Below, piece after piece: positions 6,287-22,812 of a stretch of 64,000 nt of DNA. A program made the position numbers and the translations under genes. Positions within the stretch are counted from its first letter, which is position 1, and every line of letters begins with the position of its first letter. This stretch comes from Candidatus Yonathbacteria bacterium RIFCSPHIGHO2_02_FULL_44_14. Lineage in GTDB: Bacteria > Patescibacteriota > Minisyncoccia > Phycocordibacterales > UBA1550. The stretch covers positions 27,631 through 91,630 of the forward strand of contig MHUT01000006.1 of the NCBI GenBank assembly GCA_001823535.1, in the 5' to 3' direction. The notes beneath the pieces were generated by a model. That model made no database searches. It was not told where the DNA came from and worked only from the letters and a program-made list of their open reading frames with translations.

Positions 6287-6294
6287 ACGTCTAT

Positions 6295-6323: not shown

Positions 6324-6334
6324 GAGGGCATATT

Positions 6335-7390: not shown

Positions 7391-7420
7391 TTGCCTAGTG
7401 ATTTGATGACATAAGATGAT

Positions 7421-8524
7421 ATGAAAAAAAATCAATCAATTGATAAAATATTTCTCAGCATCACTGCTCTCCTTGCGTTGGTTGGGCTTTTTGTTTTCAC
7501 ATCTGCTTCATTTGGGCTTTTTGCGCGCAAGGGATTTTCTTTGCAGGATCTCCTGTTTGATCAGGTAGTTCTTGGACTTTTTTTGGGAATAATTGTTGCA
7601 GCAGTAGTTGCGTTCAAGTTTCCATTAAAATTCTTGCAGGCCAACGCACTCTATTTTTTTATAGGTTCGATTGTTATTTCTTTGTTCGTTTTTGTGCCTG
7701 GGGTGGGGCTTGAGCACGGTGGAGCACATAGATGGATCGATCTCGGAATAATTTCGTTTCAACCCTCAGAGCTTCTCAAGCTTGGCACGATTATCTATTT
7801 TGCCGCACTCCTGCCCCTCTTTAGAGAGCGTATCGGTACGTTGAAGTATGCTATTGGCGTCACGGCAGGAATACTCTTTTTCCCCGCGGTAATTTTGCTT
7901 CTGGAGCCCGACACAGGAACATTTGCGGTAGTTTTTACGGCAATAACAGCAATGCTCCTTGCGGCTGGCATGAAGATTCGTCATTTTGTACTTATTATTG
8001 TCGTCAGCATCCTTGCCATCGGCATTTTGGCAATCGCGCGTCCGTATGTGGGTGAGCGCTTACTTACGTATCTTGACCCATCGCGTGACCCGCAGGGAGC
8101 AAGCTACCAGATTCAGAAATCACTTCTTGCCATCGGCTCAGGCGGTATAACCGGGCGGGGGTTTGGTCAAAGTATTCAGAAATTCGGATCTCTTCCCGAG
8201 CCGACTGGCGACTCAATTTTTGCAGTAGTGGGGGAGGAGTTCGGATTTATTGGAGGGTCGACAATCGTAATTTTATTCCTATTGTTTGGCGTTCGGGGAA
8301 TCCAAATAGCGCGTCGCGCCCCAGATATGTTTGAATCGCTTTTAGCCGTCGGAATTGTTATACTGATAATATCGCAGTCATTTGCGAATATCGCAGCGAT
8401 GCTCGGACTTATACCGCTTACGGGAGTGCCGCTTGTTTTTGTGAGTCATGGCGGCACTGCGCTCCTTTTCGCTTTCCTCGAAGTCGGCATTCTCCTTAAT
8501 ATTTCTAAATTATCAAAAGCATGA
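7421..8524 (+). CDS. ftsW: SEDS-family peptidoglycan glycosyltransferase (FtsW/RodA)
   Basis: 10-TM profile with PSELLKL and VSHGGTALL motifs. Lies between mraY and murG. Confidence 0.8.
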   Translation: MKKNQSIDKIFLSITALLALVGLFVFTSASFGLFARKGFSLQDLLFDQVVLGLFLGIIVAAVVAFKFPLKFLQANALYFFIGSIVISLFVFVPGVGLEHGGAHRWIDLGIISFQPSELLKLGTIIYFAALLPLFRERIGTLKYAIGVTAGILFFPAVILLLEPDTGTFAVVFTAITAMLLAAGMKIRHFVLIIVVSILAIGILAIARPYVGERLLTYLDPSRDPQGASYQIQKSLLAIGSGGITGRGFGQSIQKFGSLPEPTGDSIFAVVGEEFGFIGGSTIVILFLLFGVRGIQIARRAPDMFESLLAVGIVILIISQSFANIAAMLGLIPLTGVPLVFVSHGGTALLFAFLEVGILLNISKLSKA

Positions 8525-9648
8525 AAATTCTTTTTACCGGAGGCGGTAGCGGCGGACATTTTTATCCGATTATTGCCGTTGCTGAAAAATTAAATAAGAT
8601 GCTTGATCGCGAAAAAATGGCGAGCGCAGAGCTTTACTACATGTCGACCGAACCTTATAACGAAAGGCTATTGTATGACAATAAAATAAAATTCAAACGG
8701 GTGACAGCAGGAAAAATGCGCGCATATTTCTCCATTCAAAACTTCTTTGATATATGGAAGACCAGCTGGGGCATTTTCAAGGCGCTTTTTCAACTTTTTG
8801 CATTGTATCCCGATGTTATTTTTGGAAAAGGAGGATTTCCGAGTTTCCCCGTTCTTTTTGCCGCCCGCCTTTTTCGCATCCCAGTGATTATTCACGAATC
8901 AGACAGTGTCCCCGGACGCGTAAACGCATGGGCGGGGAAATTTGCACAAAAAATAGCGATCTCTTATGCTGAGGCAGCGCAGTTTTTCCCCGAAGGCCGC
9001 ACGGCGCTTACGGGAAACCCGATTCGAGAAGAAGTTCTTCGACCATCAGGGAAGGAGGCGTTTAAAGAGCTTGGGCTGGATCCAAATATTCCAGTACTTC
9101 TTGTTCTTGGTGGTTCTCAAGGTGCGCGCGCTATCAACAATCAAATGGAGACGCTTGCGCCGCGGCTTGTAGAAAAATACCAAATTATTCATCAAGCGGG
9201 TGAAGTAAATATGGCCGAAGTCCAGACTACCGTGAACGGTCTTTTGGGAGGCAATCCAAATGCATCACGTTACCACATTTATGGATACATGGGTTCTGAA
9301 ACAATGAAGCTTTCCGCTGAGGCGACTACTGTTGTTGTGTCCCGCGCTGGGTCTGCGATTTTTGAAATTGCGGCGTGGGGCATACCCGCAATACTTATTC
9401 CGATTGCAAACCATGTTGGCGATCATCAACGGAAAAATGCGTTTGCTTATGCGCGGTCGGGTGGTGCGGTGGTTATAGAAGAGGCAAATCTCGGACCAAA
9501 TATTTTGCTGTCAGAAATAGAAAATTTAATGCAAGATGAGAATAAACGTGCTGTAATGAAAGAATCGGCTAAAGTATTTGCGCGTACCGATGCGGCCGAA
9601 AAAATTGCCGAGCAGATTATTGCGGTTCTTTTGCGGCATCAGATTTAA
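8521..9648 (+). CDS. murG: UDP-GlcNAc--undecaprenyl-PP-MurNAc-pentapeptide GlcNAc transferase
   Basis: N-terminal MKILFTGGGSGGHFYPIIAVAEKL; GT28 architecture. ATGA overlap with the ftsW stop. Confidence 0.85.
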   Translation: MKILFTGGGSGGHFYPIIAVAEKLNKMLDREKMASAELYYMSTEPYNERLLYDNKIKFKRVTAGKMRAYFSIQNFFDIWKTSWGIFKALFQLFALYPDVIFGKGGFPSFPVLFAARLFRIPVIIHESDSVPGRVNAWAGKFAQKIAISYAEAAQFFPEGRTALTGNPIREEVLRPSGKEAFKELGLDPNIPVLLVLGGSQGARAINNQMETLAPRLVEKYQIIHQAGEVNMAEVQTTVNGLLGGNPNASRYHIYGYMGSETMKLSAEATTVVVSRAGSAIFEIAAWGIPAILIPIANHVGDHQRKNAFAYARSGGAVVIEEANLGPNILLSEIENLMQDENKRAVMKESAKVFARTDAAEKIAEQIIAVLLRHQI

Positions 9649-9752
9649 GAATAGAAGCTGCGCGATATCTTCTTGTGTCGTGTTGCCGGCTTAGGTACCA
9701 TGTGTCTCATAGCAGAGCGCGCGATAATACTCGTTTGCTACAATAAAAAAAT

Positions 9753-11096
9753 ATGACGAAAGTAATCACAAGATTTGCACCATCACCGACAGGGGTACTC
9801 CATATTGGATCCGTGCGCACCGCACTTTATTCCTGGCTCTATGCAAGGCAAAATAACGGCAAGTTTATCCTGCGTATCGAGGATACCGATAAAGAGCGTT
9901 CAAAAAAGGAATATGAAGATAATATTATTGATGGGTTAGAGTGGCTCGGGCTCACTCACGATGAGTTTTATCGTCAATCGGACCGCTCTGATGTTTATAA
10001 AAGGCATCTTCTCGCGCTTATTGCAGACGGGACTGCGTATGTTTCAAAAGAAGAACCAAAGGAACTAGGTGAGCGTTCCGAAGTGATTCGCTTCAAAAAT
10101 CCCAACAGAGTGGTCACTTTTCACGACGTAGCACGCGGTGATATTTCATTCGACACGACAGAGCTCGGCGATTTTGTGATTGCAAAGGATTTTGAATCAC
10201 CACTTTATCATTTCGCGGTCGTGGTGGATGATTTTGAAATGCGAGTTACTCATGTAATTCGTGGCGACGATGCTATCTCGAATACACCGCGACAAATTCT
10301 TATTCAAGAGGCGCTTGGTGCTCCTCGTCCTGTATATACGCATTTGCCTATGATCCTTGCGCCTGATAAATCAAAACTATCCAAGCGTCATGGCGCACTT
10401 GCGGTGACGGAATATCGCGAAGAGGGATATTTGCCGGAGGCAATCCTTAACTTTGTGGCACTCATGGGCTGGAATCCGGGCAATGACAAAGAAATTATTT
10501 CTCTTGATGAGATGATCATGCTCTTTAAACTCGAAAAGATTCAAAAAGGGGCTGCTGTTTTTAATATTGATAAATTAAAGTGGCTTAATAAACACTACAT
10601 AAAACTTCTTCCTGCTGAAAAAGCGGGTAAGGAGATTCTCGCGCGATTTCCTGAAATGTTACGCATAAAGGCGGAAGATAACTCAGAAATTTTTTCAAAA
10701 ATTATTGTTGTCATACTTGATCATATTTCAACGTTTGGCGAAGTACGCTTTTTTGCGGAGGCAGGGGAGTATAGGTATTTTTTCGAGGATCCTATTTACC
10801 CGCGCGAGGCACTCTTGTGGAAGGACGAGCAGGAGCCCACACGAGCGGCAGAAAAATTAGAGAAAGTTCTTGTGCTTCTTGAGGAAATTGATGATGTGTT
10901 TTTTACGCCTGAAACTATAAAAACTGCTATTTGGGACTACGCAACCGAAGCGGGGCGGGGGAGTGTCCTTTGGCCGATGCGCTACGCTCTCTCTGGTCGC
11001 GATAAATCCCCAGACCCATTTATACTATCGAGTATTCTGGGGAAAGAAGCAACGATTCGTCGCATTGAAAATGCGATAAAATTGCTTTTAGGATAA
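9753..11096 (+). CDS. gltX: Glutamate--tRNA ligase
   Basis: RFAPSPTGVLHIGSVRTALYSW...RIEDTD and KLSKRHG motifs. Confidence 0.9.
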   Translation: MTKVITRFAPSPTGVLHIGSVRTALYSWLYARQNNGKFILRIEDTDKERSKKEYEDNIIDGLEWLGLTHDEFYRQSDRSDVYKRHLLALIADGTAYVSKEEPKELGERSEVIRFKNPNRVVTFHDVARGDISFDTTELGDFVIAKDFESPLYHFAVVVDDFEMRVTHVIRGDDAISNTPRQILIQEALGAPRPVYTHLPMILAPDKSKLSKRHGALAVTEYREEGYLPEAILNFVALMGWNPGNDKEIISLDEMIMLFKLEKIQKGAAVFNIDKLKWLNKHYIKLLPAEKAGKEILARFPEMLRIKAEDNSEIFSKIIVVILDHISTFGEVRFFAEAGEYRYFFEDPIYPREALLWKDEQEPTRAAEKLEKVLVLLEEIDDVFFTPETIKTAIWDYATEAGRGSVLWPMRYALSGRDKSPDPFILSSILGKEATIRRIENAIKLLLG

Positions 11097-11111
11097 TCAA
11101 TTTTATACGGT

Positions 11112-12395
11112 ATGCGCAAAATTATTTACCAATTCACCATTTTTATATTCATCGGTATAGTGGCATTGGTCACGGATTCTTTTGTTTTTGCTCAAACTGT
11201 AGATGAGTTGGAGAGAAAAATTGCATCACAAACAACTCTTATCCAAAAACTTGAGCAAGAGATTCGGCAATATCAAGGTGACTTAGCAACACTAGCTACG
11301 AAGAAAAAAACACTGAAAAATGCTATCGCAGCCCTTGAAGTTACGCGCAAAAAACTTGAGGCAGACATTAAACTAACACAAACAAAGGTCGACACGACAG
11401 ATTTAAAAATTCGCCAACTTGGTTCAGAAATATCCTACAAAGAAAATGAGATAAATGTGCGCAAGGCAGCCCTCAAGGAGGCGCTCCTTGAGATGTATGA
11501 GAGCGACGAGCAGTCATTGGCACAAATTGCGTTGTCTAACGAAAGTTTTTCCGGGTTATGGAATGACATTGAAACACTGGAACAATTTAGTTCTAGTGTG
11601 ACTGAAAATGTTGAGTTGATAAAGTCTCTCAAAGCAGATCTGGAACAAAAAAACAAAGTGAAGCAAAATGAAAAAGGAAAACTTTTAGGACTCAAAGAGG
11701 AACTTGGTGATCAGAAGAAAATAACTGAGGATAATAAAAAGCAGACGACGAAACTCTTGACTCAAACAAGCAATCAAGAATCAAAATATCAGCAGATTCT
11801 TAAGGACAAGCTCGCGCTTAAGGAGGCTCTTGAAAAAGAACTTCGTGAATATGAATCAACCTTGAAGTTCATTCTTGATCCTTCGTCGATTCCTCCACGT
11901 GGCACAAAAGTTCTTGCTTTACCCGTTGATAATTATCGTATTACTCAATATTTCGGAAATACTGAATTCGCAAAAAGTGGCGCATATAATGGTAGCGGAC
12001 ACAACGGCATAGATTTTGGAGTATCGACAGGGACGCGCATAAAAGCGATGCTTTCAGGTGTCGTGGTTGGCACAGGGAATACGGATCTATATCCCGGGTG
12101 CTATTCGTACGGAAAATGGGTGCTTGTAAAGCACGCGAACGGACTCTCTACCCTCTATGGGCACCTCTCGCAGATCAAGGTATCGAACGGACAGTCAGTT
12201 GGTACTGGAGATCTTTTGGGCTACAGCGGTAACACTGGATACAGCACCGGCCCGCATTTGCACTTAACGGTATTCGCAAGTGCCGCAGTTAATGTTGTTC
12301 GTCTTGGAGATATCAAAAAGTCTACCAATTGCGCGAATGCATCAATTCCTGTTGCCGCCCTCAACGCATATCTTAACCCAATGGATTACTTATAA
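11112..12395 (+). CDS. M23 family peptidase with N-terminal coiled coil (EnvC-like)
   Basis: Long heptad-rich N-terminus. C-terminal GHNGIDFGVSTGTRIKA...HLHLTV LytM motifs. Confidence 0.8.
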   Translation: MRKIIYQFTIFIFIGIVALVTDSFVFAQTVDELERKIASQTTLIQKLEQEIRQYQGDLATLATKKKTLKNAIAALEVTRKKLEADIKLTQTKVDTTDLKIRQLGSEISYKENEINVRKAALKEALLEMYESDEQSLAQIALSNESFSGLWNDIETLEQFSSSVTENVELIKSLKADLEQKNKVKQNEKGKLLGLKEELGDQKKITEDNKKQTTKLLTQTSNQESKYQQILKDKLALKEALEKELREYESTLKFILDPSSIPPRGTKVLALPVDNYRITQYFGNTEFAKSGAYNGSGHNGIDFGVSTGTRIKAMLSGVVVGTGNTDLYPGCYSYGKWVLVKHANGLSTLYGHLSQIKVSNGQSVGTGDLLGYSGNTGYSTGPHLHLTVFASAAVNVVRLGDIKKSTNCANASIPVAALNAYLNPMDYL

Positions 12396-12416
12396 AAAAC
12401 GAGGTACAATTGCCAT

Positions 12417-12632
12417 ATGAAAAAACCCTCACAAAAGCGCGGATTCATGCAAATTGTGCTTTTGGCAATTATTATCATTGCAGCACTTGGATATTTTAAT
12501 ATTGACCTGCGCACTGTTATCGAAAGCCCAATAATTCAAAAGATTTGGAATATATTTGTAGTTGGGTGGAAGACATACTTGCAGCCGTTTGTTATGTACC
12601 TTTGGACGAGCTTCAATGGGCTTTCAAAATAG
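12417..12632 (+). CDS. Hypothetical small membrane protein (71 aa)
   Basis: One clear TM helix and a modest RBS. No homology recognised. Confidence 0.3.
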   Translation: MKKPSQKRGFMQIVLLAIIIIAALGYFNIDLRTVIESPIIQKIWNIFVVGWKTYLQPFVMYLWTSFNGLSK

Positions 12633-12781
12633 GCCACTGTTTGCGTTCAAAAGTGAGTATTTTTACCCACAATAATATTATAGATAACTTCCTTAATCCA
12701 TTCTATAGTCGTAAAAGATATATTGTGCGACGTGCGTCTAAATCATTTTTTAAGGCATACCCCCACTAATTAACAGACTAT

Positions 12782-13531
12782 TTATTGTTGTGATATAAAT
12801 TTCAGAGTCGACGTAAATAATTCTTTTTTTGCAGCACTCGTGCCAAACATATGCCCAGTGTTCTTTATTATTTTTAATCGTTTTTTTTCAGTAGAGTTAT
12901 CAAAGTAATACCTTGTATTATCACGTGCTCCTTTTTCTGCACCAATATATAACTTGTCAACAGTAAGTGTCTTTAGGATTCTATCTATATCATCGTACTT
13001 CTCTAAATCATTCAAAAATTTTCTGGAAAAACTTATTAGAAATTTGTACTTTGTATCTTTTGTTTTGTAAACATTTTTTGCCTCATCAAAAATAAAATTA
13101 CTTTTTATTGAATCAACAATCTGAGATGGCACACTCGGGTCCCACAGGATTAGTTTCTTGAATTTTATCAGCTTGGAGTATTTTTTGTAAAATAAAATTG
13201 AAATGACAGCACTAAAACTATGTCCAATAATAACTACCTCCCTATATTTTTTATTTGAACTTTGAATGCATTGATATAAACTTTTCAAATAAAGGTCAAC
13301 ACTGAGGTCGCCCATTTTGAAACAATCTGATTTATTAAAAATATCATCATTGCAAAAATTTATACGCAGAATATCAAAATCATTTTTTTTAAAAAACTGC
13401 GTCCCCATTTTAACCAAAAAACTATCCTTACCACCAGAAATGCCACTCATGATAACAAGTAAAACATCGCTCCCTTTTTTTTCATAAAGGTCAAAATAAA
13501 CAAATTTATTTTTCAATATATTTAATTTCAT
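12782..13531 (-). CDS. Alpha/beta-fold hydrolase (esterase/lipase-like), strongly AT-rich
   Basis: GHSFS nucleophile elbow (GxSxG) and a C-terminal NTGHMF putative His. Codon usage dominated by K/N/I/F/Y, unlike the flanking genes. Confidence 0.6.
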   Translation of the reverse strand: MKLNILKNKFVYFDLYEKKGSDVLLVIMSGISGGKDSFLVKMGTQFFKKNDFDILRINFCNDDIFNKSDCFKMGDLSVDLYLKSLYQCIQSSNKKYREVVIIGHSFSAVISILFYKKYSKLIKFKKLILWDPSVPSQIVDSIKSNFIFDEAKNVYKTKDTKYKFLISFSRKFLNDLEKYDDIDRILKTLTVDKLYIGAEKGARDNTRYYFDNSTEKKRLKIIKNTGHMFGTSAAKKELFTSTLKFISQQ

Positions 13532-13540
13532 CTAGATAAT

Positions 13541-13573
13541 TAAAATAAAAAGCAAGGGCGTTTTTGCCCTTGC
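13541..13573 (-). terminator. Rho-independent terminator after the DUF397-like gene
   Basis: gcaagggc-gttttt-gcccttgc hairpin followed on the minus strand by a T-run. Confidence 0.6.
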
Positions 13574-13590
13574 TTACCCGGCAAGTACGC

Positions 13591-13854
13591 TCAGAGTTCG
13601 TCAAAATTGAGTTCACCCTCCCGGATACCTTTTGTGAATGCATCCCACTCGTCCTTGTCAAAAGAAAGAGTTGTTTTGTTCGGGTCCCTCGTTGACCTTA
13701 CGAGGAGTCGGCCACCCTCTTTTTTAACGCTTACGCAAGAGAATGAGATCGGCTTCCTTTTTGTAAATGAAGTGGTTTTGAATCCTTCTTCGTCGACCTT
13801 TTGGCCCTGATTGTTGGTTGTAAATGCACAACCGTTTCCAAAAACATCTTTCAT
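13591..13854 (-). CDS. DUF397-like small protein. Start reassigned to ATG 13854; the track start is a GTG at 13866.
   Basis: C-terminal half SCVSVKKEGGRLLVRSTRDPNKTTLSFDKDEWDAFTKGIREGE aligns with the actinobacterial DUF397 consensus. A degenerate N-terminal copy (GNGCAF) precedes it. Own terminator. Confidence 0.55.
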   Translation of the reverse strand: MKDVFGNGCAFTTNNQGQKVDEEGFKTTSFTKRKPISFSCVSVKKEGGRLLVRSTRDPNKTTLSFDKDEWDAFTKGIREGELNFDEL

Positions 13855-13965
13855 AATATACCCCACTTTCTATCAAATGAATTAAGGAAAACTACCACCT
13901 GAAACCTAAAAGGCTTCAATGAAACAGTACCATATAATTAATTGCAAAGCAAGAGCAGAAAACAA

Positions 13966-14057
13966 GTTATCCACACCCTGTGGTTTGCGTAGCATTGCCC
14001 TAAAGCTTGATTGTGCGACGTGGGTATAATAGATTCCACCTAGCTCCCCTTTGCTTG
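13966..14057. repeat. Direct repeat copy 1 (~92 bp), left boundary of the three-gene cassette
   Basis: Near-identical to 16370-16470 apart from two small indels. Overlaps the last 5 codons (QAKGS) and stop of the ATP-grasp gene. Confidence 0.9.
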
Positions 14058-15098
14058 GCTCTGTTTCTTGATGTACGTGTCTACTGCATCGACAAAAATT
14101 CTCTCTGGATTAGGATGTTCACTAATTTTTTCCCAGCCAAGCGTTCCTTTGCGAAAGAAAAATGAAGAATGTTCTACTGCGTACTGCCCAAAACTTAAAA
14201 ATTGAAACTCAATAAGGAAATATTCGTTATCTCTGATTGCGACATCTATAGAAATAAACGGCACATTAAAAAATGTAAAAACCTTATCTGCAAAGTTTAA
14301 AAGATCGTCAGGTACTTCTTCTGGAAACGAGAGGATCCCGCTTCCACTTGCTCGGAAATCTCCCGGCCTGTTTCCCCTCCTGAGCACATAAAATCTATTA
14401 TCGTATATTAAAATTTTATAGTCGTGAGATAAGTCTGAAATAAAATTTTGAACTATAAATTTTCTGCGATAATTTGAGATTGATTTGAACCCTTTTCCAC
14501 TTAGGATGCCATTAAAGAATCTTTTTAAGTTTATAAATGAATAACTTCTTGCTATGTAGCGAGAGGCGTGCAAAGCTTCCTTTTTTGATCGCACAAGCCT
14601 CACTCCGCTACCCTTTGATCCAGATCCTGGCTTTATAACAATCGGAAGCCGGTTCCCGCTAAAAGATCCTTCGAATTCATCGAATGTTCCATATTTTTCT
14701 GAAATAATGTTTTGGATTAATGGGAATCTACTACTATCCCTTAAAATTTCCATGAACACTTTATTATGGTGAGCTCTGAACTTATAAAAATCTGGTATTA
14801 GGATAGCCTTGTTAATTTTAAGCCCTAATAAAATATCTTCAATATAATCCTTATAGCGAAGATCTGGGTCCTCTGCGGATTGATACAACACAAATGATCC
14901 TGCGTATTTATCTGAATGAAAATCAACATTTGAGAATCTCTCAATTTCAACACTGTATCCTCTGTTTTTAAATAAACGCTTCAATTCTGAGGTGTTCATA
15001 CTCCCAGCAACTTCCTTTGTTGATGAATAAAAAGTATTTCGATAATCGAGCAAAATAAAAAGTTTTTTAGTCATTTCTATCCTTAAAAATTTCTTCAA
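14040..15098 (-). CDS. ATP-grasp fold ligase; substrate unknown
   Basis: PIVIKPGSGSKGSGVRL glycine-rich loop. C-terminal ISIDVAIRDNEYFLIEFQF Mg/ATP-binding beta-strands. Its 3' end lies inside repeat copy 1. Confidence 0.7.
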   Translation of the reverse strand: MKKFLRIEMTKKLFILLDYRNTFYSSTKEVAGSMNTSELKRLFKNRGYSVEIERFSNVDFHSDKYAGSFVLYQSAEDPDLRYKDYIEDILLGLKINKAILIPDFYKFRAHHNKVFMEILRDSSRFPLIQNIISEKYGTFDEFEGSFSGNRLPIVIKPGSGSKGSGVRLVRSKKEALHASRYIARSYSFINLKRFFNGILSGKGFKSISNYRRKFIVQNFISDLSHDYKILIYDNRFYVLRRGNRPGDFRASGSGILSFPEEVPDDLLNFADKVFTFFNVPFISIDVAIRDNEYFLIEFQFLSFGQYAVEHSSFFFRKGTLGWEKISEHPNPERIFVDAVDTYIKKQSQAKGS

Positions 15099-15612
15099 AA
15101 AAGATTTGATCCCTCACAATATTGAACGCAGTATTATAGAATTTTATTTCCCCTTTTCTTACTTTATCTACCTGTTCTCTAAGAATTTTTCTTGCAGTTT
15201 CACCCTCAAGCCAAATAACTGAAAGATCGTTCTTTTTTTCGTCCTCGGTCCGCAGGTCCCCATAAGTTTCTTTTTTTGCCTCTACCAAAAAACAAATAGT
15301 TTCGTATTCTTTTGCATCTCTGTCGCGAAACTCATGAATCCGACCAACCTCACGCTCCACATCAACCTCATAACGTATCTCTTCGATACATTCTCTCTTG
15401 ATTTCTTGAATAATATCTGCGCTTTCAGCTCCTCCGCCTGCCAAAAGATAACATTTATGAATAGGGTTTGTAATAAAACCAAACTCCCCTCCCTCATTTT
15501 TCACAAGAGCCTTTACTGTCACCCTTTTTTCGTAATGATCAGGGGTAATGTGTGTCGGTTGAGGGAAAATGTCTTTATCGTGCAATGTAGCTAAATAATA
15601 CATATTACTCAT
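15067..15612 (-). CDS. Nudix-like hydrolase with divergent Nudix box. Start taken at the internal ATG 15612; the 5' ORF extension overlies a terminator hairpin.
   Basis: GGGAESADIIQEIKRECIEEIRY approximates the Nudix box GX5EX7REUXEEXGU with a one-residue shorter spacer. Overlaps the ATP-grasp start by 32 nt. Confidence 0.5.
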   Translation of the reverse strand: MSNMYYLATLHDKDIFPQPTHITPDHYEKRVTVKALVKNEGGEFGFITNPIHKCYLLAGGGAESADIIQEIKRECIEEIRYEVDVEREVGRIHEFRDRDAKEYETICFLVEAKKETYGDLRTEDEKKNDLSVIWLEGETARKILREQVDKVRKGEIKFYNTAFNIVRDQIFFEEIFKDRND

Positions 15613-15620
15613 TCTATCAT

Positions 15621-15656
15621 AAAAATTGGGCTTTCCGGCGGGTGGACGGAAAGCCC
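15621..15656 (-). terminator. Terminator-like hairpin immediately after the histidine phosphatase stop
   Basis: gggctttcc-...-ggaaagccc 9-bp stem, followed on the minus strand by aattttta. Confidence 0.5.
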
Positions 15657-15662
15657 AAAAAA

Positions 15663-16310
15663 TCAAACATTAAAATCAATTTTCGGAAGCGGCTTCTCGA
15701 GGATGAATTGACCGCATCCTGTATTGAAGAGAGCAGCGACGTAGCAATTGGGCGGATTTGCAAAAAAACAAAATTCATCATCAGTGATTGCCAGAAAAGC
15801 TTTCACAATGACTCTTAGGGCAAATCCATGTGTAAAAATTACTACACACTCAGGATGGTCATTGGATGCGCCGTCACTTTTTAATTCCTCTATAAATTGC
15901 TCAATGTCATGCACAAAGTCAGGGGTGTAATCTCCCTGAGGGAATTGGAAGTGTAGTACCCCGATACGATATCTCTCTTTCTCGACCTCCTTAATGGTTT
16001 TTTCGTCTACGTTGCCCCAGTTCAAGTTTCTAATACGTGGTTCAACGGTGACATCAAAATTGACCAAAGGAAAACTCGAACAGAATAATGACATTGTTTG
16101 GTCCGCGCGGTTTGAAGGCGAAGTAATTACCTTTACTCTTTGGTACAAATTTATCTCTTGAGATAAATTCCCTACTATTTCCAAAGCCTGCTTCTTTCCG
16201 GTTGTCGTAATTGAAATTCTACGATCTGGAACAACGCTATGCAAACAAGGGTCAATATCTTCTTCTGATTGCGCGTGCCGAACAAGAAATATACGTTTCA
16301 ACATTCCCAA
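15663..16310 (-). CDS. Histidine phosphatase superfamily protein (phosphoglycerate-mutase-like, branch 1)
   Basis: N-terminal LVRHAQSE (RHG motif) and a later THG motif (IFTHGF). Confidence 0.75.
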   Translation of the reverse strand: MGMLKRIFLVRHAQSEEDIDPCLHSVVPDRRISITTTGKKQALEIVGNLSQEINLYQRVKVITSPSNRADQTMSLFCSSFPLVNFDVTVEPRIRNLNWGNVDEKTIKEVEKERYRIGVLHFQFPQGDYTPDFVHDIEQFIEELKSDGASNDHPECVVIFTHGFALRVIVKAFLAITDDEFCFFANPPNCYVAALFNTGCGQFILEKPLPKIDFNV

Positions 16311-16369
16311 CTCCTTTTTAAAAAGAACTCAGTATATGTTGCGCTACAAATACAAATTTGTCAATAGCC

Positions 16370-16470
16370 GTTATTCACACCCTATGGCTTGCGTAGCATT
16401 GCCCTAACGCCTAAAGCTTAATTGTGCGACGTGGGTGTATAATAGATTCCACCTAGCTCCCCTTTGCTTG
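16370..16470. repeat. Direct repeat copy 2 (~101 bp), right boundary of the cassette
   Basis: Same sequence as 13966-14057 with acgcc and tg insertions. Supplies QAKGS-stop to the 81-aa ORF ending at 16453. Confidence 0.9.
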
Positions 16471-16698
16471 ATTTAAAAACTGTGCACCAAACGCCACCAG
16501 GAAAAGATACACAAATGCTCCCGCAGCGTAATACGCCATCACGAGTGAAACATTCCTATCAAAAATATTGTAAAGAAAAATAGGAAGAAAGACACCAAGG
16601 AGTCCGCTCGATATCGCCATCACCATGCGTCCAAAATAGAGCCCAAAGAACCCTCTCCTTCGTTCTTTGTTAGTTAGTAAGTAGTCCAGGTTTTCCAT
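16453..16698 (-). pseudogene. N-terminal fragment of a polytopic membrane (transporter-like) protein, fused to the repeat-encoded tail
   Basis: 81 aa with two TM helices, ending in the repeat-derived QAKGS-stop. Too short for a transporter, so likely truncated by the recombination that created the repeat. Confidence 0.4.
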
Positions 16699-16707
16699 TA
16701 TATATAT

Positions 16708-17166
16708 TTAATTGCGATCGTAGCGCCCAATGAGCGTCACCTTTTCGATTACATGAGGAGCGAGCGTCTGCAGCAGTTGCTCTTTGCTTGAACCTTTGGG
16801 TAATGAGAGAACAGCACTGAGCGTGTAGAGTGTAAAGATATATCGATGTTCTCGGTCAGGCGGACATGGACCTTCGTATGCTGATTCCCCGCTGGTGTTT
16901 GTCCCGATGACACCAGGAGGAGTCTCCCCTTCTGCAATCTGTGTTGTCGTGGGTGGTAGATTCCAAATTACCCAATGATTCCACATTCCATCGACGCGAA
17001 TATTTTTAGGAACGTCAGGATCTTCTAGTGTGAGGGCAAAACTCTTTGTCCCTATAGGTGCACCATCAATAATTAACTCTGGTGAAATGTTTTCACCGTC
17101 GCAGGTAAAACGAACTGGAATTTCCCCATTCATTTTGAAAGCGGTGCTCGTTAGGGTGAGTGACAT
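16708..17166 (-). CDS. YbhB/YbcL family Raf-kinase-inhibitor-like (PEBP) protein
   Basis: HRYIFTLYTL and DPDVP PEBP signatures. Confidence 0.8.
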   Translation of the reverse strand: MSLTLTSTAFKMNGEIPVRFTCDGENISPELIIDGAPIGTKSFALTLEDPDVPKNIRVDGMWNHWVIWNLPPTTTQIAEGETPPGVIGTNTSGESAYEGPCPPDREHRYIFTLYTLSAVLSLPKGSSKEQLLQTLAPHVIEKVTLIGRYDRN

Positions 17167-17192
17167 AGACTGAAATTATAACATAAAGCACC

Positions 17193-17819
17193 TCATTGGC
17201 TTGGATAAAATTTCGCGAGTGGACAGCTTGTGTGTTTACATCGCGCAGAGCAATATTCCCTGCCGTAAAGGATAAGAAGATGCGAAAATCGCACCCAATC
17301 TTTTTTTGGGATAATTTCCATCAAGTCTTGCTCTATCTTGGTCGCATCTTTGTGTTTCGTAAGTCCAAGAAGGCGCGAGAGACGAATGACGTGCGTATCA
17401 ACAGCAATACCTTCAGCGGTGCCATAAAGTTCGCCGAGTACAACATTGGCAGTCTTGCGACCTACACCGGGAATGGTAAGCATACCCTTCATTGTTTTTG
17501 GAACTTTTCCTTTAAAATCTTTCTTGATTACCTTTATTGCAGCAAGAATATTTTTTGTTTTTGCACGATAAAAGCCTGTTGAGTAGATATCTCGCTCGAA
17601 TTCACTCGGCTCCGCATTTACATAATCATCAAGCGCTCGGTGTTTTTTAAAAAGATTCTTTGTGACGTCGTTCACTTTTTTATCAGTGCACTGAGCCGAC
17701 AGTATTACTGCAACGAGAAGTTCCCATGGTTTAGTGTAATGCAGTGCGCATTTTGGATCAGGGAAAAGTCGCGTCAAAGTACGTATAATTTCAGGCAAGT
17801 TTGTATTTTCTTTTTTCAT
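17193..17819 (-). CDS. nth: Endonuclease III (HhH-GPD with 4Fe-4S). Start reassigned to ATG 17819.
   Basis: LSAQCTDKKVN; GVGRKTANVVL HhH-GPD; C-terminal CX6CX2CX5C-like cluster CSARCKHTSCPLAKF. Confidence 0.85.
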   Translation of the reverse strand: MKKENTNLPEIIRTLTRLFPDPKCALHYTKPWELLVAVILSAQCTDKKVNDVTKNLFKKHRALDDYVNAEPSEFERDIYSTGFYRAKTKNILAAIKVIKKDFKGKVPKTMKGMLTIPGVGRKTANVVLGELYGTAEGIAVDTHVIRLSRLLGLTKHKDATKIEQDLMEIIPKKDWVRFSHLLILYGREYCSARCKHTSCPLAKFYPSQ

Positions 17820-18636
17820 AGGTAATGAGCATGTCTTTAATGAGAGCGTCGAGGGCTTCTTTTGTACGAGAATTATTATTGATTTCGCGCTTAACTGCAA
17901 TTAAAGTTTTTGGTTCTTCGCTGAGTATACGAATTATTTTCCCCCGCAATTCTCTGAATGATCCTTTGAATGTGCTTTGGCTCACGTAGTGCTTGCTTTG
18001 CGTGTTCGGATTTTTTCGTATAACTCTTGGCAAGTGTGTGCCATAATCCATGAGTGCATAATACCATTCGCACGGATTTTCGTGGTCAAGCGTTTGTTCA
18101 ACGAGCAATTTGATTTCCTCGTCACTTATTTTTCCAGTTGCCACCCTCTTGTTTCCGAAAAAATGATGAATGAAAACTCGGCGGATATTTGTTTCAATAA
18201 ACACCCGCGATTCGTCGTGCGCAAACGTAAGGATTGCATTTGCAGTGTAATAGCCAACGCCTGGGAGTGCGCAAAGCTCCTCTTCTGTTTTTGGTATGCG
18301 TCCTTTGAAATCAACTACAATTTTTTGTGCCGTATCGCGAAGATATCTTGCGCGACGATTGTACCCCATCCCCTGCCAGACGCGGAGAACCTCAGAAAGC
18401 GGAGCATTTGCCAGTGTTTCAATCGTAGAGAATGCCTCTAGAAATTCAGGGTATTTTCTTAGTACTCGCGCGACCTGCGTTTGCTGGAGCATTACCTCGG
18501 AAATGAGGATTTTGTAGGGGTTTTTGGTCTTTCGCCAAGGCAAATTATGCCTTCCTGAGTGCCTGTAGAAGGCGCAAATTTGAGACTGGAAGGCCTTTAT
18601 CCGTGCGGGGGTTAGTTTGGGTGATTTGCTCAACAT
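17791..18636 (-). CDS. MutY-like adenine DNA glycosylase (HhH-GPD). No obvious Fe-S cysteines or C-terminal Nudix-like domain.
   Basis: LPWRKTKNPYKILISEVMLQQTQV and LPGVGYYTANAIL motifs. Only 281 aa. Confidence 0.7.
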   Translation of the reverse strand: MLSKSPKLTPARIKAFQSQICAFYRHSGRHNLPWRKTKNPYKILISEVMLQQTQVARVLRKYPEFLEAFSTIETLANAPLSEVLRVWQGMGYNRRARYLRDTAQKIVVDFKGRIPKTEEELCALPGVGYYTANAILTFAHDESRVFIETNIRRVFIHHFFGNKRVATGKISDEEIKLLVEQTLDHENPCEWYYALMDYGTHLPRVIRKNPNTQSKHYVSQSTFKGSFRELRGKIIRILSEEPKTLIAVKREINNNSRTKEALDALIKDMLITYEKRKYKLA

Positions 18637-18668
18637 TTCCCTATTTTAGCACATCAGTGTAGACGGCT

Positions 18669-19256
18669 TTACGTGTGGACAATGGGATACTCTGCGAATT
18701 CGGGAAGTAAGTTTTTATCGTAGAGAAGTCGAGAAAATGCTTCAGCCTCATACTTAGCGCCATTAAGTCCGTGGTGGGGTTTTGGTTCCTCCGGAAGTCC
18801 GAGATATTTTAGGATAGTGTCGAGAGAAAGATCTGCGCGATCATTCTTGTGTTGTACTGGTACTTCCCGTTTGATCATATCCATATACGCCATCGAGTTG
18901 AGATCGAGAGTGCGATATGCAAAATGCCAACCGATGTGCGCGCGAGCGAACGAATCATTGAGGAAGTCTCGGTCAAACGATGGATTTTGCCCCGCAAGCG
19001 TTTTATCTCCACATTGCTCTATCCAGTGTAAAAAATTCTGCATTAGTTCGTCAAGTGAATGTTTTTTGGGGTCCATGCACTCTTGTTTTGTGAATCCGTT
19101 CACTACGAGTGCATCGCTCATAATATTTGCGCCATCCCACATGCGACATTCACCATAGAACTGTCGTTCCGGATGTTCGAAATCCACGGCACCGATGCTT
19201 AAAATCGAATGCTTGTGTGGATCGAGCCCCGTTGCTTCAATGTCTGCGACTATCAT
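18669..19256 (-). CDS. DEDDh 3'-5' exonuclease (DnaQ/RNase T-like)
   Basis: Exo I ADIEATGLD, Exo II QNPSFDRDFL, Exo III HHGLNGAKYEAEA with His. Confidence 0.7.
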   Translation of the reverse strand: MIVADIEATGLDPHKHSILSIGAVDFEHPERQFYGECRMWDGANIMSDALVVNGFTKQECMDPKKHSLDELMQNFLHWIEQCGDKTLAGQNPSFDRDFLNDSFARAHIGWHFAYRTLDLNSMAYMDMIKREVPVQHKNDRADLSLDTILKYLGLPEEPKPHHGLNGAKYEAEAFSRLLYDKNLLPEFAEYPIVHT

Positions 19257-19271
19257 AATCCACTTATTGTA

Positions 19272-20300
19272 TCACAAAGAAGAAAATTGCTTGTTTACCT
19301 GTCTTGTCAGAAAAATACTCTCGGTAAATCCCGCAGTCTCCCCCGAGAACCAGTCGTTTGCAATATAAAATTCAAGATCCTCTTTTGTGTGTGCGTCGGA
19401 TCCGCCAAGAGCAAGCCCCCCGTGTCTTTGTAGAATCTCTCGGAGGTCGGCACGCTCCTTTGCGAGTGCTTTTTCGCGGTCAGTGCCATACTCTCGGATC
19501 CCGTACACAACTTCTGCGCCATCAATTCTTTTTTCAGCCAGAAGTTTTTCAAATATTTCGAGTGGCATTTTTGAGCGAACCGTGAAGTAATGTGCGATGA
19601 CCGCAACACCTCCCGCACCGCGAATCAAGGCAACAGCTTGATCAAGGTCCGGCATGTATTCGTGCTCTGCGTAGCCTTCGCGAAAAGCATCAGGTGAAAG
19701 GAAAAGCACGTATGGGTAATTTCGCTCTCCTTTTTGCATCATATGTGCGTACCGTTCTTGAATAGCAGGGTTGCGAGAAGCCTCGTCTGCCATTTCGAGG
19801 CGAATTTTTTCCACAATAAGATTATTCTCTGGATATTTTTGGAGTGCTTGAACAATATGCGGGCGACCGACAGATTCCCCTCCCGACATCTGAAGGCAGT
19901 CCTCGGCAGTGATTTTGAATCCAAGTTTTTGAAGTTTAGACACCATTTCATTCATTCGCTTTATGCGCGCTTGCTGTGCAAGGTGACAGTGTTTAATGAG
20001 CGCTTCATTTGTTGGATCAAGAAAAAGGCCAATGATATGCATTACGCATGTTTCTGGCACGAGTTCTTTTGGAAGTCCAGCGGTAACCTCGGTCCCAATG
20101 ACCCATTTTGTTTTGCGACCGCGAAATGTTTCGAGCTCTGCTACTGTAGTTGGTGATGGTACCGCATCATGGTCGGTGTACGCGAGTACAGAAATGCCGA
20201 GGGACTCTGCGAGTTCGAAAAGTTCGCGATGTGAGAGTTTGCCATCAGAAAGCGTGGTATGAGTGTGGAGGGATTCGATGGCAGTCATAAGTAGCCCCAT
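19272..20300 (-). CDS. PHP-domain phosphoesterase
   Basis: N-terminal LHTHTTLSDG and a later DHD; C-terminal GGSDAH. Typical PHP metal ligands. Confidence 0.7.
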   Translation of the reverse strand: MGLLMTAIESLHTHTTLSDGKLSHRELFELAESLGISVLAYTDHDAVPSPTTVAELETFRGRKTKWVIGTEVTAGLPKELVPETCVMHIIGLFLDPTNEALIKHCHLAQQARIKRMNEMVSKLQKLGFKITAEDCLQMSGGESVGRPHIVQALQKYPENNLIVEKIRLEMADEASRNPAIQERYAHMMQKGERNYPYVLFLSPDAFREGYAEHEYMPDLDQAVALIRGAGGVAVIAHYFTVRSKMPLEIFEKLLAEKRIDGAEVVYGIREYGTDREKALAKERADLREILQRHGGLALGGSDAHTKEDLEFYIANDWFSGETAGFTESIFLTRQVNKQFSSL

Positions 20301-20497
20301 TGTAGCATAGTGTATTTAATGATAAAAATTAGCACAGTTGACATAAAGTCAGACTTTGTGCACTATAATTCTTGCCGACACTGATTGGTATCGGTCTGTC
20401 TGGATGCTTTTTTAAGAACCTCTATTTGCTTATAATCCGAATGTTTCGGCCTAAGTGACTAGAAAATGGTAACAAGAATTTTTGAAAGGGGATAAAA

Positions 20498-20869
20498 ATG
20501 AAAGGGTTCATGCGCAGTCTTGTTAATCGCTTGATCACAAAAAATCGTTACGACAAGTTGCTTGAAATTCAGTTTCCAAATAATCGTGATGAGTTTTTGC
20601 GGTATGTCAAAGAAGATCTTGCGAGCGATGATGTCAATACTATGACACCAGAAACTCTCGGGAAAATTATGTGCCAGATTGATAATGGAGATGTTTCCGT
20701 GACAAAAGAAGAATTGTCTAATTTTGTTCAATTCTTGGGTAACTGTGATGAATTACTTCGTGAGATGGTATCACTTTGTCTTGCGTGTGTGATTTATAAG
20801 CACCTGAACGGCAGTTTAACGAGTACCCAGAACACCCAAGAAAGTTCTTTGCGGATCGTAAAAAAATAA
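20498..20869 (+). CDS. Hypothetical protein (123 aa)
   Basis: Intact ORF with an AAAGGGGATAAAA RBS and a downstream intrinsic terminator. Confidence 0.5.
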   Translation: MKGFMRSLVNRLITKNRYDKLLEIQFPNNRDEFLRYVKEDLASDDVNTMTPETLGKIMCQIDNGDVSVTKEELSNFVQFLGNCDELLREMVSLCLACVIYKHLNGSLTSTQNTQESSLRIVKK

Positions 20870-20884
20870 AAGCATGACAATTCA

Positions 20885-20922
20885 CCCCTTGGCCCAACTG
20901 CGAGCCAAGGGTTTTTTGTTTT
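20885..20922 (+). terminator. Rho-independent terminator
   Basis: cccttggc-ccaactgcga-gccaaggg followed by ttttttgtttt. Confidence 0.8.
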
Positions 20923-20924
20923 AA

Positions 20925-21085
20925 GAGCCTATCCACTATCTCGTGGTACCCAGACTAGAAACCCATATTTTTAGGTGAAAAACAAGTCGGAGGCACGAAA
21001 CATAATGAATTATGTTTCGTGCGAGACGAAGTTTTGTAGCCCAAAATAATGGTTTCTAGGCAGGGGGAAGATAGTAGATAGGCTC
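20925..21085. mobile_element. MITE-like structured element with terminal inverted repeats
   Basis: 17-bp TIR gagcctatc(c/t)actatct at both ends; sub-terminal tagaaacc/ggtttcta pair; 13-bp central hairpin at 20994-21021. Lies between two convergent genes and abuts the stop codon of the 21086-21520 gene. Confidence 0.45.
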
Positions 21086-21520
21086 CTAGAGTCCCTTGCA
21101 AGACGCAGACGGAGTGTAGCCTCGGGTTTCAGCTTCAATTTTTGATGCGAAATGAATGAGGTTTGTTTCTGCGATTTTTTGCACACCAGTGCACCACGGG
21201 TAGTAGTATTTTGTGCCATTTTTTGAGCCTACGAGCTGAGTTGATTGAGTGTTTATTATGCTTGCTGCCTGAGGGTTTTCAAATCCTCTTGCGGTGGCGG
21301 GGCTAAAAGTGTCGACAACAACCTCTGGGGTATTTTCGATGCGAATCGGGGTTTTCGAACCTTCAATTTTGGAAAGCCTACCGAGACCAAAAGACCCAAA
21401 AGCAACGAGAATGATAATGAGTACTAAATAAAGATCGTCCGGGATAGTGCTGAGGTTTGGTCGTCTAAAACCCCCAAACCCCTTGATTTTTTCTACTAAA
21501 TCTTTTATACTATGCATCAC
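21086..21520 (-). CDS. Membrane-anchored protein with a C-terminal Ada-Zn-binding-like fold lacking two of the four Cys
   Basis: N-terminal TM helix; C-terminal KYYYPWC...HFASKIEAETRGYTPSASC pattern. Domain assignment is tentative. Confidence 0.5.
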   Translation of the reverse strand: MMHSIKDLVEKIKGFGGFRRPNLSTIPDDLYLVLIIILVAFGSFGLGRLSKIEGSKTPIRIENTPEVVVDTFSPATARGFENPQAASIINTQSTQLVGSKNGTKYYYPWCTGVQKIAETNLIHFASKIEAETRGYTPSASCKGL

Positions 21521-21555
21521 ATTAATTATTAAGCATTATATAGCATTTTAACACC

Positions 21556-21828
21556 ATGGCAACACGAAAAGCCGGCGGATCCGCCAAAAACCTAACTGAT
21601 TCAGGACCAAAGTACCTTGGTACCAAGCTTTATTCTGGCGAGGTTGCCAAGGCTGGATCTATTATCGTGCGTCAGCGCGGTACAAAGATCCTCGCAGGTG
21701 CGAATGTTGCCATCGGCAAGGACCACACACTCTACGCCCTCAAGGAAGGCATTGTAGAATTCTCTGAAAAGCGCAAAGGAAACTTCGACGGCACAACAAC
21801 TCGCCGCAAGGTAGCAAGCGTTAAGTAA
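21556..21828 (+). CDS. rpmA: 50S ribosomal protein L27
   Basis: GGSAKN...[18 protein letters not shown]...DHTLYAL motifs. Confidence 0.9.
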
Positions 21829-21842
21829 AACTCTCAAATAAG

Positions 21843-21872
21843 AAAACCGCACAGTGATGTGCGGTTTTCTTA
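21843..21872. terminator. Bidirectional intrinsic terminator between rpmA and the NADAR gene
   Basis: aaccgcaca-gtga-tgtgcggtt with T/A runs on both sides. Confidence 0.65.
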
Positions 21873-21878
21873 TCTAAA

Positions 21879-22355
21879 TCACTGGACTAATCTTGATCTC
21901 AGTTTCATATAAAGTTTACCGAGTTCATTATTTCCTGTTCCGTCAGGTCCGATTCCCCAAAAACTATCTATCGGTGAATTTTCTACAATCGTTCGCCCTC
22001 CTGTTTCAAGAAGAACCCTTCTTATTTTTTCATGCTGTTCAATTTTTGCTATAAGAATTTCTTCCATTATCGCCACCTTATTATCGTGCCATTCTTTAGT
22101 AACTTTGTCTTTATTTTCATTCGCTATTTTTATTGCCATGTTCGGGCTTGTTGCTTCGAAAATTTGTCCAGCAATATTTGGATAAGAATCAATATACTTT
22201 TTCCACTGATAAGCGTGCTCTGCGGTTTGAAATTCTCTTCCCCAAAGTTGCACAACAAAAGCTGAAAAATTATCTAAGGGGTAAAACGGAGGCGTGTAGA
22301 AATATACAGCATCATCTGTCTCCTTGTTAAAGTCATTAGAGGGATACTTGTTCAT
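21879..22355 (-). CDS. NADAR (YbiA-like, DUF1768) domain protein
   Basis: FYPLDNFS, AEHAYQWKK, SPIDSFWGIGPDGTGNNELGKLYMKLR motifs. Confidence 0.75.
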   Translation of the reverse strand: MNKYPSNDFNKETDDAVYFYTPPFYPLDNFSAFVVQLWGREFQTAEHAYQWKKYIDSYPNIAGQIFEATSPNMAIKIANENKDKVTKEWHDNKVAIMEEILIAKIEQHEKIRRVLLETGGRTIVENSPIDSFWGIGPDGTGNNELGKLYMKLRSRLVQ

Positions 22356-22367
22356 TTTGAGTTCGAA

Positions 22368-22811
22368 CTAGATTAACGCCTCTACCACCACTGTAAATGC
22401 CACGCGGTTTTTTTCAATCACCACGGGGATTTCGTAGGTACCGAGTTCTTTGAGCGGGCGGTCTAGGATGACGTAATCGGGATGCATATCGAGATGCGCG
22501 GAGCGCTTGAGCTCAGCCAAAACTTCGTCTTTGTGAATGCTTGCAAAAAGGTGTCCTTTTTCGTTTGCTTTACCACGGAGAGTAATCGTTGCGCCTGAAA
22601 TAGCTTCAAGATTTTTCATTAAAAGTTCAGTGTGAACTTTTTTCATTGTTGCATCAGTTGCCATCTTTCCTTGAATGCGCGCGAGAACCTCTTTTGTTGC
22701 AGGCTCGGCGAGCTTTTGCGCAACAAGGTGTCTGCCATACCCGTCGGCAACTTCTTTCACTTCATATTTTTTGCCAGTTCGCGGTACGTCTCTTAAGAAT
22801 ATGATCTTCAT
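22368..22811 (-). CDS. rplI: 50S ribosomal protein L9
   Basis: MKIIFLRDVPRTGKKYEVKEVADGYGRHLVAQKLAEPATKE N-domain; 147 aa. Confidence 0.85.
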   Translation of the reverse strand: MKIIFLRDVPRTGKKYEVKEVADGYGRHLVAQKLAEPATKEVLARIQGKMATDATMKKVHTELLMKNLEAISGATITLRGKANEKGHLFASIHKDEVLAELKRSAHLDMHPDYVILDRPLKELGTYEIPVVIEKNRVAFTVVVEALI

Positions 22812-22812
22812 G

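Follow-up and report, generated by a model that had tools for sequence, protein, structure and literature searches.

What do three adjacent genes, encoding a histidine phosphatase, a Nudix hydrolase and an ATP-grasp enzyme, accomplish together in a bacterium with a tiny genome? This question is raised by a locus in Candidatus Yonathbacteria bacterium RIFCSPHIGHO2_02_FULL_44_14, a member of the Patescibacteriota (assembly GCA_001823535.1). We analyzed 64,000 nucleotides (nt) of contig MHUT01000006.1 (positions 27,631 to 91,630, forward strand), called here the window and numbered from its first nucleotide. The open reading frame (ORF) list of the window includes three ORFs on the minus strand, at 15663-16310, 15067-15666 and 14040-15098. 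An initial annotation, made from the sequence alone, identified their products as a phosphatase, a Nudix-like protein and an ATP-grasp protein, and these identities proved correct; the motifs quoted for them, LVRHAQSE and IDVAIRDNEYFLIEFQF, are both found in window ORFs. The three genes, with start codons as discussed below, are listed here with the initials used to describe gene order (lengths in amino acids, aa).

15663..16304, minus strand: histidine phosphatase (H), 213 aa, His_Phos_1 branch 1
15067..15603, minus strand: Nudix hydrolase (N), ~178 aa
14040..15074, minus strand: ATP-grasp enzyme (G), 344 aa, RimK/LysX/GshB ligase clade by structure

We propose that this trio is a self-contained, functionally linked Patescibacteria cassette that tailors a compound made from a precursor linked to a nucleoside diphosphate (NDP), most likely an NDP-sugar. 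We assign this proposal a probability of roughly 40%. A literature search found no paper combining ATP-grasp, Nudix and Patescibacteria, and the combination of ATP-grasp, Nudix and histidine phosphatase retrieved only papers on inositol pyrophosphates. The cassette, built from known superfamilies, is apparently undescribed so far.

Conservation of the trio in Patescibacteria

A homologue search with the ATP-grasp protein yielded 596 matches, whose contigs were examined, and a further 80 loci were fetched from GTDB species representatives. Profiles of all three proteins locate H, N and G side by side in approximately 42 fetched loci, about 30 of them distinct. Judged by record title, these loci come almost entirely from Patescibacteria (Paceibacteria, Zambryski-, Campbell-, Vogel- and Nomurabacteria, and bins labelled Saccharibacteria). 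The genes are arranged in four orders: G>H>N, which is the commonest; H>N>G, which is seen in the window, in its relative L001/L011 and in L030; divergent H<|N>G; and convergent G>|<N<H. In addition, a single Nudix–ATP-grasp protein of 519-520 aa is encoded in L039 and L044. As L039 and L044 do not group as sisters in the tree of ATP-grasp proteins, the fusion arose twice. The three genes are functionally linked: their adjacency has persisted in about 30 distinct loci despite four rearrangements and two fusion events. The initial annotation had made conservation of the three genes as neighbours in other genomes the touchstone of its operon, and such conservation is what we find.

Junctions between the genes are short. 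G and H are separated by 0-4 nt in G>H>N loci, and the end of N and the beginning of G share 8 nt in the window (ATGACTAA). Judging from these junctions, G is probably translationally coupled to H in G>H>N loci and to N in the window. The ATP-grasp start was placed at ATG 15074 on the basis of homologues and of independent gene calls on four metagenome contigs from the same organism. The overlap is thus 8 nt rather than the 32 described initially, the latter figure belonging only to a TTG-start version of the ATP-grasp ORF. For the Nudix gene the most likely start is ATG 15603, and for the phosphatase gene it is ATG 16304, 8 nt downstream of an AGGAG sequence.

The genes that flank trios contain few recurring functions. 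In 13 trio loci of the divergent type (H<|N>G), an AsnB-family amidotransferase gene directly follows the ATP-grasp gene, and an NAD-dependent sugar epimerase gene adjoins the trio in two Patescibacteria loci of different gene order, L001 and L007. In one strain (L006, 1-5822), genes for a serine recombinase, an ADP-ribosyl exotoxin-like protein and a helix-turn-helix (HTH) protein form an insertion immediately upstream of the trio; the phosphatase gene of this strain is split (96 aa called), and that of the sister contig L005 is intact.

ATP-grasp homologues in polysaccharide loci

Homologues of the ATP-grasp protein with 33-46% identity also occur in 47 loci that lack H and N. These derive from Bacteroidota, Myxococcota, Planctomycetota, Acidobacteriota, Pseudoalteromonas (for example Pseudoalteromonas aurantia 208, L068) and others, and they are one-directional polysaccharide loci that carry genes for Wzx/Wzy, WecB, WecG/TagA, sugar epimerases, an initiating sugar transferase and Wzc. 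Genes for UDP-sugar dehydrogenase, hexapeptide acetyltransferase, polysaccharide deacetylase and PGA_cap are also present. The gene for a GT4 glycosyltransferase lies directly adjacent to the ATP-grasp gene in 24 of the 47 loci; it is no more than two genes away in 35 and no more than 6 kb away in 37. This association was found for the non-Patescibacteria clade only, not for trio loci. An exhaustive profile search of 1.84 billion representative proteins assigned 463 clusters to the ATP-grasp family (E ≤1e-30), two of which are GT4–ATP-grasp fusion proteins (P0230 and P0252).

In a neighbour-joining tree, all 32 of the trio-linked ATP-grasp proteins form one clade that is nested among the polysaccharide-locus proteins. 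At 33 positions, spread over the whole protein, the two groups have the same residue with a conservation of at least 90% in each, which points to shared chemistry; these positions include K148, D277, E289 and Q291. The physically coupled partner of the ATP-grasp enzyme is GT4 outside Patescibacteria and Nudix within this group, and both enzyme classes take NDP-linked groups. We therefore propose an NDP-linked, probably sugar, precursor for the trio. An idea put forward in the initial annotation, that the genes process an NDP-linked compound, is strengthened by this adjacency and fusion to GT4.

Two sub-architectures recur among the polysaccharide loci. One (L041, L057, L064, L080 and L082) has the order G–GT4–second ATP-grasp–phosphatidylserine-decarboxylase-like–DUF354, and the other (L054, from Petrimonas sulfuriphila DSM 16547, L083, L084 and L088) has polysaccharide deacetylase–PGA_cap–G–GT4. 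Each arrangement is suggestive of sugars decorated with amides derived from amino acids.

The ATP-grasp enzyme

The predicted model of the ATP-grasp protein has a confidence (predicted local distance difference test, pLDDT) of 92. Its nearest structures are carboxylate–amine ligases of the ArgX/LysX/RimK/GshB type, and the ligases outscore kinases. The ATP-grasp fold is present, together with the Lys and the acidic/amide Mg-ATP ligands that define the superfamily. The model thus shows the fold of ligases that act through an acyl-phosphate.

However, identity to RimK, LysX, ArgX and GshB is 10-15%, and no family cut-off is reached. The families covered for RimK/LysX were TIGR00768, TIGR02144 and PF08443; the protein scores 14.7 bits with rimK_fam (cut-off 143.4) and 15.4 bits with PF08443 (cut-off 21), and any RimK match at all is found in only 7 of 52 family members. 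Similarly, PF14397 gives 19.7 bits against a cut-off of 31.4 and matches 2 of the 52 members, and TupA (PF14305) matches one, weakly. In contrast to these ligases, the family has invariant N-terminal motifs of its own (DYRxxFYSS, LYQSSEDP and FRAHHNKVFMEILRD) and an FRASGSG loop, it has Q in place of the usual N of the E-x-N motif, and its loci have neither a LysW-type carrier protein nor a ribosomal S6 context. No named equivalog is reached by any trio protein or by the ATP-grasp homologues in polysaccharide loci, so none of the trio genes maps to a characterized housekeeping equivalog; mapping to housekeeping families was what the initial annotation had considered as the opposing outcome.

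We also considered a graspetide system, that is, one for ribosomally synthesized and post-translationally modified peptides (RiPPs). Macrocyclases of the MdnB/C type are poorer structural matches, no conserved precursor ORF is adjacent, and a paper on graspetides of the candidate phyla radiation (CPR) has no mention of Nudix or phosphatase; this candidate was rejected. A 715-aa ATP-grasp fusion called in L053 was discarded as an artefact of a high-GC read-through frame with the real start internal.

The Nudix hydrolase

The initial annotation described a Nudix box that is one residue short, and this stands. The box, GGGAESADIIQEIKRECIEEIRY, is a residue shorter than the canonical form and has its catalytic REUXEE residues intact. 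When the family is aligned by profile with GX5EX7REUXEEXGU, the position of the first Glu is found to be variable, and the last G is replaced by N or R. Invariant in the family are R73, E74, E77, E78 and a GGG sequence, and a FYNTAFNIxRD motif at the C-terminus is conserved. The window protein scores 16.0 bits with PF00293, below the gathering cut-off of 21.1, but it has the fold of the superfamily. Also, most of its homologues have a precomputed PF00293 match, and the family profile matches 2azw at E 1.6e-7.

The best structural match is an NDP-sugar hydrolase, by a small margin. Identity to the NDP-sugar hydrolase NudF of B. bacteriovorus (5c7q) is 15%. The family differs from the NDP-sugar hydrolases in its shorter box without the conserved first Glu, and in having its own N-terminal extension as well as the C-terminal FYNTAFNIxRD. 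A precedent for a Nudix enzyme in a polysaccharide cluster is WcaH/NudD, the GDP-mannose mannosyl hydrolase of the colanic acid cluster.

Some members of this Nudix family have other partners. In L095-L098 (P0188), a member is fused to a Pol-beta/NTP_transf_2 nucleotidyltransferase, and the fusion gene adjoins genes for an APH-type kinase, a 168-aa protein, GNAT, and HAD or low-molecular-weight (LMW) phosphatase. A similar set comprising GNAT, Nudix, the 168-aa protein, APH and a CPT-like kinase directly precedes G>H>N in L009; in L009 and L020 its distance upstream of the trio is 5-6 kb. Gene content of this kind, which recurs, is reminiscent of aminoglycoside-modifying enzymes or amino-sugar kinases.

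Such contexts bear on an alternative in which the precursor is not a sugar. Patescibacteria depend on scavenging, and the trio could serve to salvage, or to clean up, a non-sugar nucleotide or cofactor (such as ADP-ribose, NAD/NaAD, CoA or CDP-amines), with Nudix and phosphatase stripping a scavenged dinucleotide and the ligase re-conjugating the moiety thus released. This alternative fits the lifestyle. It would also fit the L009 and L020 trios, which are found amid genes for other Nudix proteins, an APH-type kinase, a CPT-like kinase, GNAT and a zeta-toxin-like kinase, and the fusion of a trio-family Nudix domain to a Pol-beta-type nucleotidyltransferase beside APH and GNAT genes. However, no salvage genes are consistently linked to the trio, and the ATP-grasp family members that reside in polysaccharide loci or are fused to GT4 are left unexplained. 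We consider it unlikely.

The histidine phosphatase

The phosphatase matches Pfam His_Phos_1 (PF00300) with 66.5 bits (cut-off 21.7, E 3e-18), and the catalytic residues R9, H10, R66 and H159-G160 are invariant among 30 sequences of its family. It does not reach the NCBIfam cut-off of any named His_Phos equivalog (CobC, GpmB, dPGM, PspA or SixA). The best score is 47.5 bits for ribazole_cobC, against a cut-off of 162.9, and the others are far below theirs. The closest solved structures are fructose-2,6-bisphosphatase, phosphoserine phosphatase, and sugar phosphatases of the Shb17/TIGAR type. A match of this protein to TAL effectors was rejected as spurious, the product of a repeat-summed score.

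Comparison with known systems

A partial precedent is found in the capsule of C. jejuni, in which the ATP-grasp amidoligase Cj1438C, fused to a glycosyltransferase, forms amides on the C6-carboxylate of glucuronic acid (PMC11800379). Among the references of that paper is work on a HAD phosphatase belonging to this capsule pathway (PMC11800379). The trio family resembles this system in that polysaccharide loci contain an ATP-grasp enzyme whose gene adjoins, or is fused with, that of a glycosyltransferase, and in the logic of combining a ligase with a phosphatase. Cj1438C reportedly ligates a phosphorylated amine, from which the HAD phosphatase Cj1435 then removes the phosphate. However, Cj1438C is TupA-like, and therefore the parallel is one of analogy, not homology. 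Also, Cj1438C is partnered by GT2 instead of GT4, the phosphatase is of the HAD and not the His_Phos_1 type, and the pathway has no Nudix enzyme.

The three superfamilies of the trio are known to act on one metabolite in inositol pyrophosphate turnover, where PPIP5K combines an ATP-grasp kinase with a histidine phosphatase and DIPP/Ddp1 is a Nudix enzyme. On this model, the ATP-grasp enzyme would have kinase activity and make a messenger, a high-energy phosphorylated sugar or polyol, that the two opposing hydrolases, histidine phosphatase and DIPP-like Nudix enzyme, would erase, so that the trio would form a bacterial counterpart of the eukaryotic machinery. If true, this would be a self-contained phospho-metabolite signalling switch in ultra-small symbionts. 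The co-occurrence of the superfamilies is what favours the model, but several observations make it very improbable. Ligases are better structural matches than kinases, profile matches to ITPK1 (E 0.58) and DDP1 (E 0.02) are not significant, family members occur in glycan loci and fused to GT4, and no inositol phosphate genes were seen at these loci. Furthermore, PPIP5K has a branch-2 histidine acid phosphatase domain, whereas the trio phosphatase belongs to branch 1, and the PPIP5K system is eukaryotic.

The 13 loci in which an AsnB-family gene follows the ATP-grasp gene recall pairs of ATP-grasp and AsnB-type enzymes such as Aslfm/AsnH of the peptidoglycan cross-bridge, Ngg/AsnO for N-acetylglutaminylglutamine amide (NAGGN) and DdaF/DdaH for dapdiamide. 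The likeness is one of gene order. AsnB is absent from the window, and the known pairs include neither Nudix nor histidine phosphatase. The first pair is the model for a special case of an NDP-sugar precursor, namely peptidoglycan-precursor tailoring, as the D-aspartate ligase Aslfm and AsnH act on the cross-bridge of enterococci and lactococci. Here, the ATP-grasp enzyme would add an amino acid to the stem of UDP-N-acetylmuramic acid (MurNAc)-peptide, an AsnB-like enzyme would amidate it, and the role of Nudix and phosphatase would be in recycling or proofreading of the UDP-linked precursor. Such an explanation accommodates both the link to AsnB and a UDP-sugar substrate. We nevertheless judge it quite improbable: most trio loci, like the window, have no AsnB, the trio shows no linkage to Mur or peptidoglycan genes, and the non-Patescibacteria homologues occur in Wzx/Wzy polysaccharide loci, not in cell-wall loci.

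A proposed pathway and the evidence against it

For the tailoring of an NDP-linked, probably sugar, precursor, we envisage the following steps. In the polysaccharide loci, GT4 would donate the sugar of an NDP-sugar to an acceptor. In Patescibacteria, this partner would have been replaced by the Nudix enzyme and histidine phosphatase, which in effect would pass the sugar to water. The Nudix enzyme would cleave the precursor into a nucleoside monophosphate and a phosphorylated moiety. The ATP-grasp enzyme, coupled or fused to Nudix, may join an amino acid or amine to the carboxylate of this moiety through an acyl-phosphate, or may act with the reverse polarity. The histidine phosphatase would strip the remaining phosphate and thereby free the conjugate. 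In one subclade, the AsnB-type amidotransferase could add amidation as a fourth step. The product might be a decoration of the cell envelope or a small metabolite. Besides the GT4 association, this pathway is favoured by the epimerase gene beside two trios of different order, by the NDP-sugar hydrolase as best structural match of Nudix, and by the sugar-phosphate and phosphoserine phosphatases among the closest solved structures of the phosphatase.

Several points weigh against this pathway. The substrate and the order of the steps are conjecture. The trio is otherwise flanked by unrelated housekeeping genes, and Patescibacteria trio loci contain no polysaccharide genes except the epimerase in two contexts. 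The AsnB partner scores above the cut-off of TIGR01536, which represents true asparagine synthase. Residues that are particular to the trio-linked ATP-grasp clade, including R12, Y16, S18 and Q65, could reflect a change of substrate after recruitment. Finally, a hairpin that resembles a terminator separates H from N, so these genes are probably not always co-transcribed.

The phosphatase–Nudix junction

The gap between H and N is 50-60 nt, and the hairpin noted there in the initial annotation is present in the window, with two features of interest.

15626-15658 (hairpin) and 15618-15625 (U-run), minus strand: 12-bp G+C-rich hairpin with U-run, intrinsic-terminator-like
15611..15616, minus strand: TAGAAT, hexamer resembling a -10 element, 7 nt upstream of the Nudix start codon

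The window hairpin has a folding energy of -20.8 kcal/mol (z -3.4). Equivalent hairpins of -18 to -26 kcal/mol, with wholly different stem sequences, occur at 14 other distinct H>N junctions (L001, L002, L005, L007, L012, L014-L016, L018, L021, L024, L027, L031 and L050). Conservation of the structure but not of the sequence speaks for a functional element, either an intrinsic terminator or an attenuator. TAnAAT-like hexamers, read by eye, follow the hairpin 6-9 nt before the Nudix start in other loci, and the window TAGAAT was not picked up by a two-hexamer scan. This layout suggests a separate, possibly leaderless Nudix/ATP-grasp transcript that would start right after the phosphatase terminator. 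The trio was initially described as a single tight operon, but the terminator-like hairpin and the -10-like hexamer would divide it into two units.

Flanking repeats and the age of the locus

The initial annotation also placed the trio inside a repeat-bounded, acquired islet. The relevant features are as follows.

13966..14057: copy 1 of the direct repeat (92 nt), which provides the final 6 codons and stop codon of the ATP-grasp gene
16370..16470: copy 2 of the direct repeat (101 nt), which provides the final 6 codons and stop codon of an 81-aa ORF
12711-12740: partial repeat copy, 30 nt, after the next downstream unit (alpha/beta hydrolase)
16453-16698, minus strand: 81-aa ORF that ends inside the repeat, with two predicted hydrophobic stretches

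The repeat does flank the trio, copy 2 being just upstream of the phosphatase gene. The two long copies are 87% identical with two indels, and none would be expected by chance. All three copies coincide with the 3' ends of minus-strand units, namely those of the ATP-grasp gene, the 81-aa ORF and the alpha/beta hydrolase gene, and the first two of these end in the same repeat-supplied last six codons (QAKGS*). A 13-mer, ATTGTGCGACGTG, is common to all copies (three matches, 0.09 expected). The repeat is restricted to this organism. The long copies have no significant fold compared with shuffled sequence (z +1.2 and +0.05), no Rfam match was found, and there is no integrase nearby; an attC-like element or integron cassette, or a structured RNA, was therefore rejected. 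The 81-aa ORF looks like the N-terminal stub of a membrane protein, has no Pfam match, and has no homologue in any fetched locus beyond contigs from the same organism.

Recent acquisition, in contrast, is contradicted by comparison with L011, an uncultured Patescibacteria metagenome-assembled genome (CAYWES010000001.1). The window is collinear with L011 over approximately 20 kb (window 6000-26000). The trio is at the same site in both and has diverged like core genes: H, N and G are 69, 67 and 69% identical, and the amino-acid identity of the flanking core genes is 49-81%. The repeat is absent from L011. Recent, repeat-bounded acquisition is rejected for these reasons, and the trio was inherited vertically between the two genomes. 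Indels between window and L011 are limited to a few hot spots, which include the two trio flanks and an extra PHP-domain gene at 19272-20300. Beside the trio, the window has genes for PEBP, the 81-aa ORF, DUF397 and alpha/beta hydrolase, whereas L011 has an epimerase gene and a 355-aa gene. The segment at 12782-13866 (minus strand) has the lowest G+C content of the region (0.33) and holds a 249-aa alpha/beta-hydrolase-like protein with weak Pfam matches and a DUF397 protein of 87-91 aa, neither of which is in L011.

The trio itself has a G+C content of 0.376, compared with 0.442 for the rest of the window. Its G+C content is below that of its flanks in 26 of 33 loci, with a mean difference of 3.4 points, which is compatible with older lateral spread within Patescibacteria. 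This low G+C content, the flanking repeats in this genome, and the variable contexts, in which recombinase, HTH_17 or ADP-ribosyl toxin genes sometimes adjoin, could also suggest an anti-phage defence or conflict system on a mobile islet, and phage defence was among the functions suggested initially. This now seems extremely improbable. PADLOC-DB 2.0 returned no family for any of five proteins at E up to 0.1, tblastn found no homologues among 50,697 phage or 72,556 plasmid records, and a viral fold library gave only generic ATP-grasp matches (template modelling score ≤0.5). Moreover, the trio includes no sensor, effector or nuclease component, and it was inherited vertically between window and L011.

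Implications

Our proposal links an uncharacterized ATP-grasp family that is common in polysaccharide loci of Bacteroidota, Myxococcota and Planctomycetota to amide-bond formation on units derived from NDP-sugars. The trio may then be viewed as an experiment of nature, with a hydrolytic pair of Nudix enzyme and phosphatase taking the place of a glycosyltransferase partner. Because Patescibacteria genomes are tiny and have nonetheless kept the trio through repeated rearrangement, it is likely to be important for the biology of these organisms, and envelope chemistry and host interaction are obvious candidates for its role.

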